A stretch of DNA of 64,000 nucleotides from Mobula hypostoma (GCF_963921235.1 NC_086108.1:3162001-3226000); one strand, 5' to 3'; shown: positions 32,073-41,786, counted from the stretch's first letter. Translations and numbers: made by a program. The notes: generated from the sequence alone by a model not told the origin.

Positions 32073-33575
32073 GAAACATAGAAAACATACAGCACAATAC
32101 AGGCCCTTCGGCCCGAACCTTAGAACCACCTAGACTTTACCCATAGCCCTCTATTTTTCTAAGCTCCATGTATCCATCCAGGAGTCTCTTAAAAGATTCT
32201 ATCATTTCCGCCTCCACCACCACCGTTGGCAGCCCATTCCATGCACTCACTACTCTCTGCGTAAAAAACTTACCCCTGACATCTCCTCTGTACCTACTCC
32301 CCGGCACCTTAAACCTGTGTCCTCTTGTGTTAGCCATTTCAGCCCTGGGAAAAAGTCTCTGACTCTCCACACGATCAATGCCCCTCATCATCTTATACAC
32401 CTCTATCAGGTCACCTCTCATCCTCCGTCGCTCCAAGGAGAAAAGGCCGAGTTTTCATAAGGCATGCTCCCCAATCCAGGCAACATCCTTGTAAATCTCC
32501 TCTGCTGTAGTGAGGCGACCAGAACTGAGCACAGTACTCCAAGTGGGGTCTGACCACGGTCTTATATAGCTGCAACATTAGCCCTCGGCTCCTAAACTCA
32601 ATTCCACGATTGATGAAGGCCAATACACCGTATGCCTTCTTAACCACAGAGTCAACTTGTGCAGCTGCTTTGAGCGTCCTATGGACTTGGACCCCAAGAT
32701 CCCTCTGATCCTCCACGCTGCCAAGAGTCTTACCATTAATACTATATTCTGCCATCATATTTGACCTACAAAATGAACCACTTCACAGTTATCTGGGTTG
32801 AACTCCATCTGCCACTTCTCAGCCCAGTTTTGCATCCTATTGATGTTCCGCTGTAACCTCTGACAGCCCTCCACACTATCTACAACACCCCCAACCTTTG
32901 TGTCAACAGCAAACTTACTAACCCATCCCTCCACTTCCTCATCCAGGTCATTCATAAAAATCACGAAGAGTAGGGGTTCCAGAACTGATCCCTGAGGCAC
33001 ACCACTGGTCACTGACCTCCATGCAGAATATGATCCGTTTACAACCACTCTTTGTCTTCTGTGGGCAAGCCAGTTCTGGATCCACAAAGCAATGTCCCCT
33101 TGGATCCCATGCCTCCTTACTTTCTCAATAAGCCTTGCATGGGGTACCTTATCAAATGCCTTGCTGAAATCCATATACACTACATCTACTGCTCTACCTT
33201 CATCAATGTGTTTAGTCACACCCTCAAAAAATTCAATCAGGCTCGTAAGGCACAACCTGCCTTTGACAAAGCCATGCTGACTATTCCTAATCATATTATA
33301 CCTCTCCAAATGTTCATAAATCCTGCCTCTCAGGATCTTCTCCATCAACTTACCAACCACTGAAGTAAGACTCACTGGTGTATAATTTCCTGGGCTATCT
33401 CTACTTCCCTCCTTGAATAAGGGAACAACATCCGCAACCCTCCAATCCTCCAGAACCTCTCCCATCCCCATTGATGATGCAAAGATCATCGCCAGAGGCT
33501 CAGCAATCTCCTCCCTCACCTCCCACAGTAGCCTGGGGTACATCTCATCCAGTCCGGGTGACTTATCCAACTTGA
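32073..33575 (-). mobile_element. 5'-truncated CR1 (same subfamily as 9222-11485 and 34121-40430)
   Basis: ORF 32755-33636 with YTPVSLTS, DFSKAFDKVPH, GVPQGSVL, FAVDTK; CTATGTTT tail at about 32075. Confidence 0.9.
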
Positions 33576-35330
33576 AAAGCCATTCTCTTATTTTGTGAAT
33601 CAGTGACCCACAGCTGCCTGTGGCAAAGAAGTCCACGGACTCACAACTGTCTGGCTAAAGAAATTCCTCCTCATCTCTGTTCTAAATGGGTGTACTTCTA
33701 TCCTGAGGCTGTGAGTCTTAGACTCCCCCACCATAGGAAACATCGTCCTCATATCCACTATTGAGGCCCTTCCATATTCACCAGGTTTCAATGAGATCCC
33801 CACTCATTCTTCTAAACTCCAGTGAGTACAGGCCCAGATATATCAAACTCACCTCGGACATTAACCCTTTTGTCCCTGAGATTATTCTCATAACCCTCCT
33901 CTGGATCCTCTCCAATGCCAGTATATCATTTCTTAGATAAGGGGCCCAAAACTGATCATAATACTCTAAGTGTGGTTTGGCCAAAGGAATTGAAGAGTCA
34001 CTTTGATGACTCTGGTAACCCCTGTACAGGATTTTGTTCACACTGTATCTGTAGAAACTGGGTTCCCATTATTTCCTTAAGGTTGTTATAGTTGGGGATA
34101 AGCTCCCACTACCTACTAAAAAAACATAGAGACATAGAAAAACCTACAACACAATACAGGCCCTTTGATCCACAATGCTATGCTGAACATGTACTTACTT
34201 TAGAAATATGTACTTACTTAGAAATTACCTAGGGTTACCCATAGCCCTTTATTTTTCTAAGCTCCATGTACTTATCCAGGAGTCTCTTAAAAAACCCTAT
34301 CGTGTCCGCCTCCACCACCGTCGCCAGCAGCCCATTCCACACACTCACCACTCCCTGTGTAAAAAACTTACCCCTGAGATCTCCTCTGTACCTACTCCCC
34401 AGCACCTTAAACCTGTGTCCTGTCATGTTAGACATTTCAGCCCTGGGAAAAAGCCTCTGACTATTCACATGATCAATGCCTCTCAACATCTTATACAACT
34501 CTATCAGGTCACCTCTCATCCTCAGTTGCTCCAAGGAGAAAAAGCCAAGTTCACTCAACCTATTCTCATAAGGCAAGCTCCCCAATCCAGGCAACATCCT
34601 TGTAAATCTCCTCTGAACACTTCCTATAGTTTCCACATCTTTCCTGTAGTGAGGTGACCAGAACTGAGCACAGTACTCCAATTGGGGTCTGACCAGGGTC
34701 CTATATACCTATATGGCTGCAATATTACCTCTCGGCTCTTAAACTCAATCCCACGATTGATGAAGGACAATGCACTGTATGCCTTCTTAACCACGGAGTC
34801 AACCTGCACGGCAGCTTTGAGCGTTCTGTGGACTCTGACCCGAAGATCCCTCTGATCCTCCACACTGCCAAGAGTCTTACAATTAATACTATATCCTACC
34901 ATCATATTTGACCTACCAAAATGAACCACCTCAAACTTATCTGTGTTGAACTCCATCTGCCACTTCTCAGCCCAGTTTTGCATCCTATCAATGCCTCGTT
35001 GTAACCTCTAACAGCCCTCCACACTATCCACAACACCCCCAAACCTTTGGGTCATCAGCAAATTTACTAACCCATCCCTCCATTTGCTCATCCAGGTCAT
35101 TTATAAAAATCACGAAGAGAAAGGATCCCAGAACAGATCCCTGAGGCAAATCACTGGTCACCGACCTCCATGCAGAATATAGCCCATCTACACTAGAACC
35201 ACTCTTTGCGTTCTGCGTGCAAGCCTGTTCTGGATCCACAAAGCAAGGACCCCTTGGATCCCATGCCTCCTAACTTTCCCAATAAGCCTTTCATGGGGTA
35301 CCATATCAAATGCCTTGCTGAAATCTATAT

Positions 35331-35541
35331 TGTGGTGATACCACGTGCAATGATGTGCCAGTACATGACTGGACAGCACTGAGCATGCGCAGAGTTTGCC
35401 AGAATGTTCCAGTGCATGGCGTGATTAAGACATGTTTGTTTATTACTGTAAGTAAAATTTCTCAAATTCTTCCAGAATAGAATTCTTTACTGTTAACCCA
35501 TGGTACGTTTAAATACAAACGTTTGTAGAAGAAATATAACA
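35331..35541 (+). repeat. 5' LTR
   Basis: TGTGGTGATACCA...GAAGAAATATAACA, homologous to 37304-37486. Confidence 0.92.
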
Positions 35542-35556
35542 TGGTGTCAGGAGTGG
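35542..35556 (+). promoter_or_regulatory. Primer binding site, tRNA-Leu-like
   Basis: TGGTGTCAGGAGTGG directly after the LTR-terminal CA; resembles the complement of the tRNA-Leu 3' end used by many fish Gypsy elements (recalled). Confidence 0.7.
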
Positions 35557-35640
35557 TTTTTGGAAGAATAATACGGGAGAATCAAGAATCGAAGATAATC
35601 AAAAAAAAAAGAAGAAAAAAGTTTGAACTGTAACGGTAAA

Positions 35641-36470
35641 ATGGAAGGTTTACAACCCCCACCAAAATTGCAGCTGACTGGCAATGTAGCAGAGAATTGG
35701 AGGATCTTCAAAGAACAGTTTGAAATATATTTATCAGCGATCAGAGCTGATAGAAAAGCAGACAAAACTAAAGCTGTGATCCTGCTCTATGTAATCGGAA
35801 CTGCCGCGCTAGAGGTATACAATAATTTTGTCTTTGAAGATGGAGATAATTTCAATTTAAAGTCGATAATGGACAGATTTGAAGTATTTTGTATACCTAA
35901 GCGTAATTTAACGTATGAACGATATAAATTCTTCACATGTGCACAAAGGGCTGCTGAAATGATTGATCAGTACATTACGGAGTGAAGAAAGTGTAGTAGA
36001 ACGTGCGAGTTTGGATTGCTCACAGACTCTCTTATTAAAGATAGACTAGTTTGTGGCATTCGAGATAATGCACTAAGAGAAGGGCTGTGGAGAGAGCAAG
36101 ATTTAAGTTTCGAAAAGCTTTCACGCTCTGCAAAGCTTCTGAGACCATAATGTTGCAGGCTGAAGAGCTTTTTGTCGAAAACTACAATGCAAGCGCCGTA
36201 AAAAAGCGCGAATATATCAAGAAATATAATAATATGTCGGCAAAACCGACAGTGAGCAAGACGGCATTTGAAAGAAAAAAGTCATGTGATCGCTGTGCAC
36301 GGGAACATCGCCCAAAATCAGTGTTTCACATATGGCAAAATTTGCTACAACTGCTGTAAGATTAATCATTGTTCACACTGTTGTAGAAGTAGAAAGAAGG
36401 AAAATAAAATGAAACAAGTAAATGCAGTGATTGAAGATGAACGTGAGGAATTTTATATAGATGTGCTTTG
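35641..36470 (+). pseudogene. gag: Degenerate Gypsy gag (premature stop at 35983-35985, frameshifts)
   Basis: MEGLQPPPKLQLTGNVAENWRIFKEQFEIYL...NLTYERYKFF...CEFGLLTDSLIKDRLVCGI, then two Zn-knuckle-like motifs (CDRCAREH; CYNCCKINHCSHCC). Confidence 0.85.
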
Positions 36471-36474
36471 TGCA

Positions 36475-37071
36475 AATGCTGACATGGGGAATATAAAAGC
36501 AGTAGCTGCAGTGTCTGAGACGACCAAACAGGAGGCAACTGATGATGTGAAAGAGCAATGGCAGGAGGAGGTTGCTTCAATGCAAGCGATAATGAGAGAG
36601 ACACTGAGAGAATATGAGATCCGGTCTCATCATCATCTAGAGCAAGTATGTTCACAGTGGGCACAGTATAAGGAAGAAGTGAAAGCACAAGTAACAGAAT
36701 TGAGAAGTTTTATTGAAATAGTGAAGTCTCAGCGTAAAAGAGAGACTACACCGTTAATGAATGAATTAAATGAAGAAAAGAAGATTTGTATTTCATTACA
36801 AATGGGAGTGGAAGGAATTAGGAAAGATACAGTCCAAACAGAAGCAGGGAAGCAGATTGCTGAGGAGGATAGCGTGAACTGCTTACCTGAAACTCCAGAT
36901 TCTAACCAGGAGGCATGTGAGAGTATACCAAAAAGTTTAGTTGAGATACATAAAGAAAAGCTTAAAGCAGAAAAGCAGAAAAAGAAGAAGCACAAGAAGG
37001 GCCATGGCCCAGATAGCGAAGAGCCAACTTCAGAGTTTCAGCTAGCTGATATAGATTTGTTTATTGGTTAA
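36475..37071 (+). other. Captured host-derived coding fragments inside the LTR element (RABEP1-like, SH3KBP1/CIN85-like, unknown K-rich segment), in frame with the gag C-terminus
   Basis: Continuous ORF 36268-37071 runs from the gag knuckle into NIKAVAAVSETTKQEATDDVKEQWQEEVASMQAIMRE (Rabaptin-like) and QVTELRSFIEIVKSQRKRE...ELNEEKKICISLQM (CIN85/CD2AP C-terminal coil-like). Similarity recalled, not searched. Confidence 0.8.
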
Positions 37072-37303
37072 TGTTGTTACTTGTTTTTCTTTTTAAGGAA
37101 AAGAAGATGTGATTCTTCAGAGATTCAGTTAACTGATGAAGACGAAACAAAACATGTAAATAATAACAAGGAAACACAAGATCTGTGTGTACCACTTAGA
37201 AGGTCTACTCATGTTCATAAACCCACAGAGAGATTGATGAGACTTGTTGAATTATGCCTTTGCTTTGATTAATGTTGTTAATTTTTTTTTAAGTAAAGGA
37301 AGA

Positions 37304-37486
37304 TGTGGTGATACCATGTGCAATGATGTGCCAATACATGATTGGACAGCACTGAGCTGCATGGGGTTTACCAGTAAGTTCCAGCACGTGGCGTAATTAA
37401 GACGTGTTTGTTTATTACTGTAAATAAAAGTTCTCTAATTCTTCCAGAATATGATTTTTTACTGTTAAAATAGAAGAAATATAACA
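37304..37486 (+). repeat. 3' LTR (28 bp shorter than the 5' LTR)
   Basis: TGTGGTGATACCA...AATAAA...GAAGAAATATAACA; preceded by a polypurine tract. Confidence 0.92.
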
Positions 37487-40400
37487 CATACCTACTACAT
37501 CTACAGCTCTTCCTTCATCAGTGTCTAGTCACATTCTCAAAAATTTCAATTAGGCTCGTAAGGCATGACCTGCCTTTCACAAAGCCATGCTGACTATTCC
37601 TAATCATATTATGCTTCTCCAAATGTTCATAAATCCTGCCTCTCAGGATCTTCTCCATCAACTTACCAACCACTGAAGTAAGACTCACAGGTCTATAATT
37701 TCCTGGGCTATCTCTACTCCCTTTCTTGAAAAAGGGAACAACATCTGCAAGCCTCCAGTCCTCTGGAACCTCTCCCGTCCCCATTGATGATGCAAAGATC
37801 ATTGCCAGAGGCTCAGCAATCCCTTCCCTTGCTTCCCACAGTGGCCTGGGGTATATCTCCTCGAGTCCCGGAGACTTATCCAACTTGATGCTTTCCAAAA
37901 GCTCCAGGACATCCTCTTCCTTAATATCTACATGCTCAAGCTTTTCAGTCCACTGTAAGTCATCCCTACAATCGCCAAGATCCTTTTCTGTAGTGAATAC
38001 TGAAGCAAAGTACTCATTAAGTATCTCTGCTATCTCCTCCAGTTCCATACACACTTTTCCACTGTCACACTTGATTGGTCCTATTCTCTCACACCTTATC
38101 CTCTTACTCTTCACATACTTGTAGAATGCCTTGGGGTTTTCCTTAATCCTGCTTGCCAAGGCCTTCTCATGGCCCCTTCTGGCTCTTCTAATTTCATTCT
38201 TAAGTTCCTCCCTGCTAGCCTTAAAATTTTCTAGATCCCTATCATTGCCTAGTTTTTTGAACCTTTTGTAAGCTTTTCTTTTCTTCTTGACTAGACTTTC
38301 AACAGTCTTTGTACACTACAATTCCTGTACCCTACCATCCTTTCCCTGTCTCATTAGAGTGTACCTGTGCAGAACACCATGCAAATATCCCCTGAACATT
38401 TGTCACATTTCTTCTGTACATTTCCCTGAGAACATCTGATCCCAATTTACATTTCCAAGTTCCTGCTTGATAGCTTCATATTTCCCCTTACTCCAATTAA
38501 ATGTTTTCCTAACTTATCTGTTCCTATCCCTCTCCAAATTTCTGGTAAAGGAAATAGAATTGGTATCACTATCTCCAAAATGCTCTCCCACTGAGAGACC
38601 TGACACCTGACCAGGTTCATTTCCCAATACCAGATCATGTACAGCCTCTCCTCTTGTAGGCTTAGCTACATATTGTGTCAAGAAACCTTCCTGAACACAC
38701 CAAACAAACTCCACCCCATCTAAACCCCTCACTCTAGGGAGATGCCAATTGATATTTGGGAAATTGAAATCTCCCACCACAACAACCCTGTTATTATTAC
38801 ACCTTTCCAGAATCTGTCTCCCTATCTTCTCCTCGATGTCCCTACTACTATTGAGTGGTCTATAAAAAACACCCAGTAGAGTTATTGACCCTTTCCTGTT
38901 CCTAACTTCCACCCACAGAGATTCTGTAGACAATCCTCCATGACTTCCTCCTTTTCTGCAGCCGTGACACTATCTCTGATCAACAGTGCCACACCCCCAC
39001 CTCTTTTGCCTCCCTCCCTGTCCTTCCTGAAACATCTAAAGCCTGGCACTCTAAGTAGCCATTCCTGCCCCTGAGCCATCCAGGTCTATGTAATGGCCAC
39101 AACATCATAGCTCCAAGTGCTGACCCACGCTTTTAAGTTAATCCGCTTTGTTCATGATATCTCTTGGATTAAAATAGACACATCTCAAACCATTGGTCTG
39201 AGCGTATCTCTTCTTTATTACATGTCTGTCCTCCCTCTCACACTGCCTACAAGCTTTCTCTATTTGTGAGCCAACCTCCCTTTCCTCCGTCTCTTCAGTT
39301 CGGTTCCTACCCCCCCCCCCCCCAGCAATTCTAGTTTAAACTCTCTCCAATAGCCTTAGCAAACCTCCCCGCCAGGATATTGGTTCCCCTGGGATTCAAG
39401 TGCAACCCATCCTTATTGAACAGGTCATGCCTGTCCCAAAAGAGGTCCCAATGATCCAGAAATTTGAACCCTTGCCCCTGCTCCAATCTCTCAGCCACGC
39501 ATTTATCCTCCACCTCACTCTGTTCCCATACTCACTGTCACGTGGCACAGGCAGTAATCCCAAGATTACTACCCTTGTGGTTCTGCTTCTCAACTTCTTT
39601 CCTAACTCCCTGTAGTCTGTTTTCAGGACTGCCTCCCTTTTCCTGCCTATGTCGTTGGTACCAATATGTACCACGACCTCTGGCTGTTCACCTTCCCACT
39701 TCAGGATATCGTGGATGTGATCAGAAACATCCCGGACCCTGGCACCTTGGAGGCAAACTACCATCTGAGTTTCTTTCCTGTGTCCACAGAATCGCCTGTC
39801 TGACCCCCTAACTATAGAGTCCCCTATCATTGCTGCCATCCTCTTTCTTTCCCTACCCTTCTGAGCCACAAGGCCAGACTCTGTGCCAGAGGCACGGCCA
39901 CTGTTGCTTCCCCCAGGTAGGCCATCCCCCCCAACAGTACTCAAACAGGAGCACTTATTGTGAAGGGGTATGGGTACAGCCACAGGGGTACTCTCTAGTG
40001 TCTGACTTTTGCCCTTCCCTCTCCTGTCTGTTACGCAGTTATCTGTCTCCCCAGGCCCCGGTGTGACTACCTGCCTATAGCTCCTCTCTATCACCTCCTC
40101 ACTCTCCCTGACCAGACGAAGGTCATCGAGCTGCATCTCCATTTCACTAACATGGTCCCTGAGGAGCTGCAGCTCGATGCACTTGACACAGATGTGGCCA
40201 TCCAGGAGGCTGGGAGTCTCCCAGACATCCCACATCCGACACCCAGTACAGAACACCGGCCTCACAGACATACTTCCTGTTCCTATCCTTCACAAGTATC
40301 TTACCTCGCCTCGGTCCATTATCGCCAAAGCCCTCCTACTCTATAAAGCTGCCTTCTTTTTAAATTCTTCCTGCCAGTCTAACCCGCTGACGTCCACACG

Positions 40401-40850
40401 CCTGTGCAGTCGCACCTCGATCAAACTCAGTATTAAATGCTCCCATTGCCATGCATCTCAAACAGCCTCTGACAACCAAGTCCAGCTCCTGGCCTTCACG
40501 TGTGGCTTAGCTACTAAGCCCGGCGGAACCATTTCTACTGACAGAAGAAGGAGCAAAGGCGGGTTACTGGCGCCTTAAAGCCGGTCGCTTTGGGCAGATG
40601 GGGCTCACCAGCTGTGGTTGGCAGCTCATCTAGGAGAAGGAAAACTCTGATCTCAAACCTCTGCTGCCTTATGGCTAAACCCAAAAGGAACAGAGCCTCA
40701 GAGAGCGGGCAGCGTAGTTTGCGGGCGGCGGAGTGAGCCGGGAGCAGAGTGAAGACTTAAGGGCTTCGGCTCACCGGGCTTAGGCAGAAACGGGCGAGGC
40801 GAGGAAGGTTTGACATTCATTTTCTGTTGCTCTTTGAGGAGAGGGGCATT

Positions 40851-41786
40851 ATGACTGTGAGGGCAGTTTGCTGTTCTCGGTGTCGGATGTGGGAGGCCCT
40901 GGAGTCTCCAAGCCTCCCGGACGTCTACATCTGCGCCAAGTGCATCGAGATGCAGCTCCTAAGGGACCGCGTTACGGAACTGGAGCTGCAGCTCGATGAC
41001 CTTCGTCTGGTCAGGGAGAGCGAGGAGGTGATAGAGAGGAGTGGAAGGCAGGTGGTCACGCCGGGGCCACGGGAGGCAGACAAGTGGGTCACGGTTAGGA
41101 GGGGGAAGGGGAAAAGGCAGGTGATGGGGAGTACCCCGGCGGCTGTGCCCCTTAACAACAGGTACTCCTGTTTGAGTACTGTTGGGGGGGACAGCTTACC
41201 CGGGGGAAGCGACAGTGGCCCTGCCTCCGGCACAGAGTCTGGCCCTGTAGCTCAGAAGGGTAGGGCAAGGAAGAGGAGGGCAGTTGTGATAGGGGACTCG
41301 ATAGTAAGGGGGTCAGATAGGCGATTCTGTGGACGCAGTCCAGAGACTCGGATGGTAGTTTGCCTCCCTGGTGCCAGGGTCCGGGATATTTCTGATCGTG
41401 TCCAAGATATCCTGAAGTGGGAGGGTGAAGAGCCAGAGGTCCTGGTACATATAGGTACCAATGACATAGGTAGGAAAAGGGATGAGGTCCTGAAAGAAGA
41501 ATATAGGGAGCTAGGAAGGGAGTTGAGAAAAAGGACCGCAAAGGTAGTAATCTCGGGATTACTGCCTGTGCCACGCGACAGTGAGAGTAGGAATGCGATG
41601 AGGTGGAGGATAAATGCGTGGCTGAGGGATTGGAGCAGGGGGCAGGGATTCAAGTTTTTGGATCATTGGGACCTCTTTTGGCGCAGGTGTGACCTGTACA
41701 AAAAGGACGGGTTACACTTAAATCCTAGGGGGACCAATATCCTGGCAGGGAGATTAGCGGGGGCTACTGAGGTGACTTTAAACTAG
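40851..41786 (+). CDS. CR1 ORF1p: Zn-finger/leucine-zipper plus SGNH esterase domain
   Basis: CSRC...CAKC followed by heptad LRDRVTELELQLDDL; SGNH blocks IGDSIV, HIGTND, KDGLH; ATG at 40851, TAG at 41784-41786. Confidence 0.93.
   Translation: MTVRAVCCSRCRMWEALESPSLPDVYICAKCIEMQLLRDRVTELELQLDDLRLVRESEEVIERSGRQVVTPGPREADKWVTVRRGKGKRQVMGSTPAAVPLNNRYSCLSTVGGDSLPGGSDSGPASGTESGPVAQKGRARKRRAVVIGDSIVRGSDRRFCGRSPETRMVVCLPGARVRDISDRVQDILKWEGEEPEVLVHIGTNDIGRKRDEVLKEEYRELGRELRKRTAKVVISGLLPVPRDSESRNAMRWRINAWLRDWSRGQGFKFLDHWDLFWRRCDLYKKDGLHLNPRGTNILAGRLAGATEVTLN

Follow-up and report, generated by a model that had tools for sequence, protein, structure and literature searches.

The RABEP1 (rabaptin-5) stretch of the Mobula hypostoma window, that is, of the whole 64,000 nucleotides of DNA that were analysed (GCF_963921235.1 NC_086108.1:3162001-3226000), is a gene fragment, neither a gene copy nor an exon. 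Its host element is a 2,156-bp non-autonomous LTR retrotransposon without pol (35331-37486), and the window copy of this element is old, degraded and dead. Here it is proposed, with a probability of roughly 75-85%, that the fragment reflects the capture of spliced host mRNA into an LTR retrotransposon by template switching at microhomologies, a reading drawn from the comparison of element, relative and host gene sequences.

The peptide described in the first-pass annotation (ADMGNIK...QYKE) corresponds to window positions 36478-36675, and the range given for it there, 36475-36672, translates as NADMGNIK...QYK. The peptide was right and its range is offset by 3 nt; the RABEP1-derived stretch is slightly wider (36472-36676, plus strand), a cDNA fragment for aa 86-155 comprising the end of exon 2 and the start of exon 3, as delimited by blastn, Pfam and peptide alignment. 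The annotation's assignment to the N-terminal coiled coil of RABEP1 was borne out with a ray protein as the comparison: in an ungapped alignment with aa 88-153 of the ray RABEP1 P0002, 57 of its 66 residues are identical (86%, E 4e-36). The enclosing open frame (36256-37071, 271 aa) matches the Pfam family Rabaptin (PF03528) at E 3.8e-30 and 105.5 bits, for a cut-off of 26.7. The distal 224 residues of this frame, compared with 5.8 billion proteins, returned 31 matches, a result well outside chance; three are named SLU7 and 28 are named RABEP1, the annotation having expected RABEP1 or RABEP2, and no RABEP2-named protein was among the 31. All 28 RABEP1-named matches come from cartilaginous fishes, the best ones being from rays (61-64% identity). 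The fragment covers about 8% of the 828-aa RABEP1, in the N-terminal coiled-coil part, and the full architecture of the protein is not present in the window, which has neither the C-terminal Rab5-binding domain (PF09311) nor the introns or the syntenic locus.

The host RABEP1 gene, with its introns, lies elsewhere, on the minus strand of C71, which agrees with the earlier view of the window stretch as retro-captured and not a real exon. A blastn comparison of the element with 170 kb of the host gene gave two matches: 36472-36598 corresponds to exon 2 (C71:53174469-53174343, 96.1%) and 36597-36684 to exon 3 (C71:53165281-53165194, 88.6%). The host splice sites, AAAG/gtaatg and ctacag/AGACAC, place the junction of exons 2 and 3 at 36598/36599 of the window, and RABEP1 intron 2 (9,063 bp) is exactly gone at this position. 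The mapping onto the host gene suggested in the first-pass annotation was carried out in this way and found the junction crossed, and intron sequence, proposed there as the sign of DNA-level capture, was found on neither side of the fragment. Because the 9,063-bp intron is precisely absent, the source was spliced RABEP1 mRNA.

The fragment lies within an LTR element, as had been claimed, with two LTRs, a primer-binding site, a polypurine tract and a target-site duplication flanking it. The 5' LTR (35331-35541, plus strand, 211 bp) and the 3' LTR (37304-37486, plus strand, 183 bp), both with TG...CA ends, were delimited by LTR-to-LTR blastn and by comparison of copies, the 5' boundary being matched by L002-L010. 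The two LTRs share 144/166 and 16/16 identities in blastn, that is, they are about 88% alike and about 12% apart. A 27-nt stretch (CCCATGGTACG...) in the 5' LTR (35515-35541) is missing in the 3' LTR (compared at 37468-37470), and after 37468 the contigs of other runs continue with a stretch similar to it; it seems to have been lost from the 3' LTR of the window copy. Reading of the sequence gave a primer-binding site, TGGTGTCAGGAGTGG, adjoining the 5' LTR (35542-35556, plus strand), and a polypurine tract, AAGTAAAGGAAGA, abutting the 3' LTR (37291-37303, plus strand). The TGG start is expected of a primer-binding site, since it pairs with the 3' CCA of a tRNA; the site presumably belongs to tRNA-Leu, and no tRNA gene was found within the window. 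In all nine of the other loci compared, the element sequence is shared, and where an end is reached the homology stops at 35329-35333 or at 37468-37486.

The element splits a CR1-like LINE copy on the minus strand, whose left part (34235-35330) continues at 37492. The direct-repeat families D1-D6 tie this split LINE to a paralogous copy at 32137-33654, with flanks 90.8% and 89.1% identical. The paralogous copy is uninterrupted, so it serves as an "empty site" control: it reads CATAT at 33172-33176, and the left (TATAT, 35326-35330, plus strand) and right (CATAC, 37487-37491, plus strand) copies of the decayed 5-bp target-site duplication are each one substitution away from it. Both CR1-like copies, 32137-33654 and 34235-35330 plus 37492-38315, are on the minus strand, have reverse-transcriptase ORFs and are 87-92% alike. 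Repeats, among them numerous pieces of LINE reverse transcriptase, abound in the window, which is vertebrate DNA. It also contains two diverging ORFs, at 39396-40289 (minus strand, 297 aa) and 40761-41786 (plus strand, 341 aa), with the motifs IGDSIVRG and HIGTNDIG common to both; judged by eye from the ORF list only, the pair resembles the ORF1 that certain CR1/L2-type LINEs have, which is esterase-like (SGNH).

Upstream of the RABEP1 fragment lies a broken retroelement gag (35641-36471, plus strand), read in frames 35599-35985, 36069-36359 and from 36256 onward, with a CCHC zinc knuckle at 36343-36384 (plus strand) in the ORF translation. Its DNA is 84-88% identical to the gag of L002, L003, L006, L007 and L032-L034, it is colinear with the gag of the autonomous copies L038 and L040, and no Pfam family matched it at E <= 0.001. 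Comparison with L031-L034 places an internal deletion joint with a 6-nt overlap, GCAAAT, at 36472-36477 (plus strand), where the protease and the start of the reverse transcriptase (RT) have been lost. Downstream, a small part of the 3' coding tail that belongs to the element itself is left at 36826-36840 (plus strand), as seen against the tails of L061, L032 and L031, and the tail ORF ends in EPTSEFQLADIDLFIG followed by a stop (37019-37071, plus strand), an end common to the SLU7-less L032 and the SH3KBP1-type L061.

Two other host genes contributed to the same ORF, and the gag, RABEP1, SH3KBP1 and SLU7 parts are all in one frame. The segment 36673-36825 (plus strand) had been considered a diverged part of RABEP1, and this was overturned by a profile built from ten copies of the segment, which matches SH3KBP1 of many fishes. 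It is a fragment of the C-terminal coiled coil of SH3KBP1 (CIN85), aa 616-666, with 40/51 identities to aa 616-666 of the 671-aa ray P0039, and tblastn agrees. The SLU7 cDNA fragment (36841-37022, plus strand, aa ~428-492), identified by protein match and blastn, joins three exons, namely the 21 last nucleotides of one, the whole of an 84-nt exon and the 77 first nucleotides of the next, with junctions at 36861/36862 and 36945/36946. ORF residues 196-251 share 44 of 56 residues (79%) with aa 430-485 of SLU7 P0030; in blastn, 36862-36945 corresponds to C21:67583226-67583309 (90.5%) and 36944-37022 to C21:67588984-67589065 (89%). Two introns of the host SLU7 gene (C21:67564762-67590509), of 3.0 and 5.7 kb, are missing from the piece. 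A longer RABEP1 capture, reaching aa 252-290, was also considered and rejected: RABEP1 stops at about aa 172 in L031, the remainder being element tail, and the long alignments are coiled-coil noise.

The window copy is one of a large family. The 128-aa RABEP1-containing segment gave at least 152 matches (from 150 scored among 1014 first-look candidates), spread over many contigs, colinear, intron-free and 54-83% identical in amino acids; some of the 152 are halves of frameshifted copies, which gives a lower bound of about 140 loci. For the 199-aa RABEP1-SH3KBP1-SLU7 segment there were 140 matches at E <= 1e-30, of which some thirty extend over the full length. Of 78 SLU7 matches, 69 are at places other than the host gene and span no more than aa ~427-494, and in the SH3KBP1 search all 67 matches listed are intron-free element copies (70-93% identity), host exons having been crowded out. 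The first-pass annotation had missed this family of at least about 140 loci, together with the SH3KBP1 and SLU7 pieces, the nature of the window copy as a deletion derivative and the fact that the mechanism had already been described in animals.

Copies at other loci form a deletion series. L031 contains gag, an aspartic protease, the first RT residues, RABEP1 from aa 61 to ~172 and the element tail; L033 and L034 have gag, protease and RABEP1 without the RT stub, L032 is without part of the protease, and the window type is without any of it. Alignments of L031-L034 with the window run to 36476/36477 and start again at 36472; between these two points the longer copies have 277-570 nt of protease or RT sequence. 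In the autonomous relatives L038 and L040 the sequence goes on beyond the pol/RABEP1 joint into RT and RNase H: gag is followed by a D[T/S]G protease, then by RVT_1 (E 7e-18) and then by RT_RNaseH (E 7e-29); no integrase was seen in the examined sequence of the two, which ends before the expected integrase position. The pol order of Ty3/Gypsy-type elements is protease, RT, RNase H and integrase, and the backbone appears Ty3/Gypsy-like, an assignment made by domain order and Pfam families. A sister family, exemplified by L061 (C18:149273950-149275250) and P0037, has the same early RT (…LKTELDRMExxEVI(K/R)K) fused, eight codons further on, to SH3KBP1 aa ~538-668. The L032 type has an SH3KBP1 patch inside RABEP1. 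The window type is thus a recombinant, with a 5' part of the RABEP1 type, a part of the SH3KBP1 type from 36673-36676 on and a probably later SLU7 insertion in the tail.

Twenty-six aligned copies have a mean mutual identity of 91.5-92.9%, and their identity to the host exons is 94.3% for RABEP1 exon 2, 91.0% for RABEP1 exon 3 and 88.2% for the SLU7 exon. Sites at which 90% or more of the copies depart from the host number 1/127, 4/86 and 7/84 in the three exons, respectively, and with so few fixed differences the RABEP1 capture is placed not long before the burst of the family. The joint ...LDSDTELK(R/Q)QNVALQ is present in predicted proteins of Hypanus sabinus (P0034) and Hemitrygon akajei (P0035); the latter species also has the SH3KBP1 patch, in P0035, and the pol-VIKK-APxPIPLL joint, in P0037. 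The family would be older than the divergence between mobulids and dasyatids, or would have been transferred between these rays. Contigs of three more public runs (library type unrecorded) hold ~1,900-2,300 family pieces, and the window-type joints are bridged by contigs of X15 (records 28, 31 and 32) and X14 (records 20 and 24).

All five joints that can be read in nucleotides have overlaps of 4-7 nt, a statement about overlap lengths alone. The pol/RABEP1 joint has the 6-nt overlap AGAGCT, the RABEP1/SH3KBP1 joint GAAG (4 nt, 36673-36676), the SH3KBP1/RABEP1 joint of L032 AGTGGAA (7 nt), the tail/SLU7 joint GAAG (4 nt) and the SLU7/tail joint AAGA (4 nt); the 3' joint between RABEP1 and the tail and the pol/SH3KBP1 joint were read in protein only. 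At the capture joint, the older copy L031 reads as pol ...CATCAACTGAAAACAGAGCT and then as RABEP1 GAAGCGACAGAAT, where the autonomous L038 and L040 read ...AAAACAGAGCTTGACAGA and the host mRNA ...GAAGAAGAGCTGAAGCGA, and the comparison of the three sets the crossover inside the common AGAGCT. In run X1, the breakpoints of contigs fall exactly at 36472, 36673, 36841 and 37022, beyond which the sequence is that of host RABEP1, SH3KBP1 or SLU7; this marks the borders of the fragments independently.

From these joints and the shared backbone we infer co-packaging, template switching, mobilisation in trans and the order of events. In this scheme, reverse transcriptase would have switched templates, at microhomologies, between the element RNA and a spliced host RABEP1 mRNA within one particle, and the RABEP1 switch would have replaced almost all of pol, leaving a non-autonomous element with LTRs, primer-binding site, polypurine tract and gag. 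Since the LTR/gag backbone is shared with the autonomous relatives and pol is absent, the proteins of these relatives may have moved the non-autonomous element in trans. In further switches, with related non-autonomous RNAs and host mRNAs as the templates, the SH3KBP1 piece and the three SLU7 exons would have been added in the gag frame. Internal deletions would afterwards have removed the protease and the start of RT, the window copy then representing the shortest subfamily, inserted in a LINE.

The open frame and the strong Rabaptin similarity are what would be seen in a true RABEP1 or RABEP2 exon, or in a processed RABEP1 pseudogene made by a LINE and adjoining LTR debris; however, such an origin is hardly credible here, as the real RABEP1 gene is on C71 and the fragment is in frame with gag and with two other genes, bordered by element sequence at microhomology joints, flanked by two matching LTRs and a target duplication, devoid of a poly(A) and repeated in more than 140 near-colinear copies. 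A different route to the spliced sequence is read-through followed by splicing, the classical path of transduction for retroviral oncogenes. An element in sense orientation in RABEP1 intron 1 would have been transcribed through, splicing would have linked a donor in pol with the acceptor of exon 2, and a later recombination would have closed the 3' side. The RABEP1 segment begins at positions 2-7 of exon 2, one base off the 5' edge of the exon and so essentially at that edge, an unlikely coincidence for random switching that leaves some room for a splicing route, and the tandem cagAAG acceptor could give an alternative acceptor 3 nt downstream. Nonetheless, autonomous pol (…ACAGAGCTTGAC…) offers no GT at this point, the element lacks the first base of exon 2, the 6-nt overlap suffices without splicing, and all the other joints are inside exons and have microhomology too; this route is therefore considered improbable, and microhomology template switching is the preferred origin of the RABEP1 piece.

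Whatever the origin of the captured parts, a function for the gag-coiled-coil fusion would be a further explanation of their presence, either for the element (Gag multimerisation, entry into partner particles) or for the host (a domesticated gene, a restriction factor). It would fit the three host pieces in the gag frame, and also the coiled coils of two endocytic adaptors, RABEP1 and SH3KBP1, taken at neighbouring pol positions. Sixteen of 26 aligned copies are free of stops across the 199 captured codons, and 14 of the 15 indels have lengths divisible by three; these two counts were set aside as functional evidence, the copies being the top of a single-frame protein search and biased in that respect. 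Pairwise dN/dS (NG86, 26 copies, 325 pairs) is 0.66 in the true frame, between the 0.48 and 0.80 of the shifted control frames, and the pattern is alike fragment by fragment; no frame-specific constraint on the captured ORF was thus found, in what is a weak test given a burst-like family and 26 copies from a protein search. Moreover, none of the copies inspected in full (the window copy and L031-L034) has an intact frame from gag to the stop. A functional fusion is accordingly thought unlikely, and the captured host parts are very probably passengers, as far as these codon comparisons indicate. It is a similarly doubtful idea that Gag-fused endocytic coiled coils may self-associate, hijack the particles of the autonomous partner or redirect particles in the endosomal system; if true, a benefit of this kind would explain why two independent neighbouring captures both became abundant families. 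A second effect, held to be just as doubtful, is that the copies, with host exon sequence 90-96% identical, could feed small-RNA silencing that cross-targets the RABEP1, SH3KBP1 and SLU7 mRNAs.

Some copies have entered gene annotations. P0034, P0035 and P0037, from Hemitrygon akajei and Hypanus sabinus, are transposon ORFs that public annotations list under the names "rab GTPase-binding effector protein 1-like" or "uncharacterized protein". The Narcine bancroftii protein P0010, named "RABEP1 isoform X9", carries a reverse-transcriptase Pfam domain (PF00078), and its gene model has probably taken in an intronic retroelement. Such copies are an annotation hazard: they may make gene families look larger than they are and lead RNA-seq mapping astray for RABEP1, SH3KBP1 and SLU7.

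This kind of event is already known, and no description of the ray family itself, or of RABEP1, SH3KBP1 or SLU7 inside retrotransposons, was found in the literature searched, largely at the level of abstracts. The maize element Bs1 is low-copy, and acute transforming retroviruses capture spliced host mRNA between their LTRs at the cost of viral genes. The process that comes closest is LTR-mediated retroposition with microsimilarity-dependent template switching, which Tan et al. (Genome Res 2016, PMC5131818) described for fly, mosquito, zebrafish, chicken and mammals. As in the cases presented there, a piece of host mRNA replaces an internal ORF of the LTR element and both LTRs are kept, with similarity at the switch points (median 6 bp there, 4-7 nt here); some of those loci combine at least two parental genes, and some transpose again as non-autonomous elements. 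In the ray element, one RABEP1 and two SLU7 junctions are intron-free and pol is replaced from the RT N-terminus onward, as in an LTR-mediated retrocopy. The cases of Tan et al., as reported, are young and single- or few-copy, whereas the ray chimera occupies at least 140 loci, is old (LTRs ~12% apart) and is in frame with gag; the ray is a cartilaginous fish, and no member of that group is in the species list given in PMC5131818.

Closest in architecture is Bs1, an LTR retroelement of maize in which fragments of three host genes have taken the place of pol (Jin & Bennetzen 1994; Elrouby & Bureau 2001, 2010; PMC13317346), and, as in the ray, one hybrid ORF unites element sequence with three host-gene pieces (PMC13317346). 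Bs1 differs in being a plant element, in its source genes (proton ATPase, xylan endohydrolase and glucanase) and in being reported as an expressed new gene. Among vertebrates the nearest case is that of crocodilian ERVs, which captured the mRNAs of KIT-ligand and nectin3 (PMC4299795); there, as in the ray, spliced host mRNA between LTRs costs viral genes, and the lineage multiplies and is common to related species. However, those are retroviruses with near full-length ORFs under purifying selection, as described in that source, and the ray element is apparently of Gypsy type, with pieces of 50-70 aa and no detected selection.

What distinguishes the ray family is the elasmobranch host, the Gypsy-like and not ERV backbone, how large and how old the amplified family is, and a series of recombinants and deletion derivatives that can still be seen. 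It offers a joint-by-joint view of an LTR retrotransposon that builds an in-frame mosaic ORF and then multiplies to at least about 140 loci. Such chimeras in animals are known mainly as single young retrocopies, and a large, old family present in several species is a natural series for the study of template switching, recombination among non-autonomous elements and exon shuffling.
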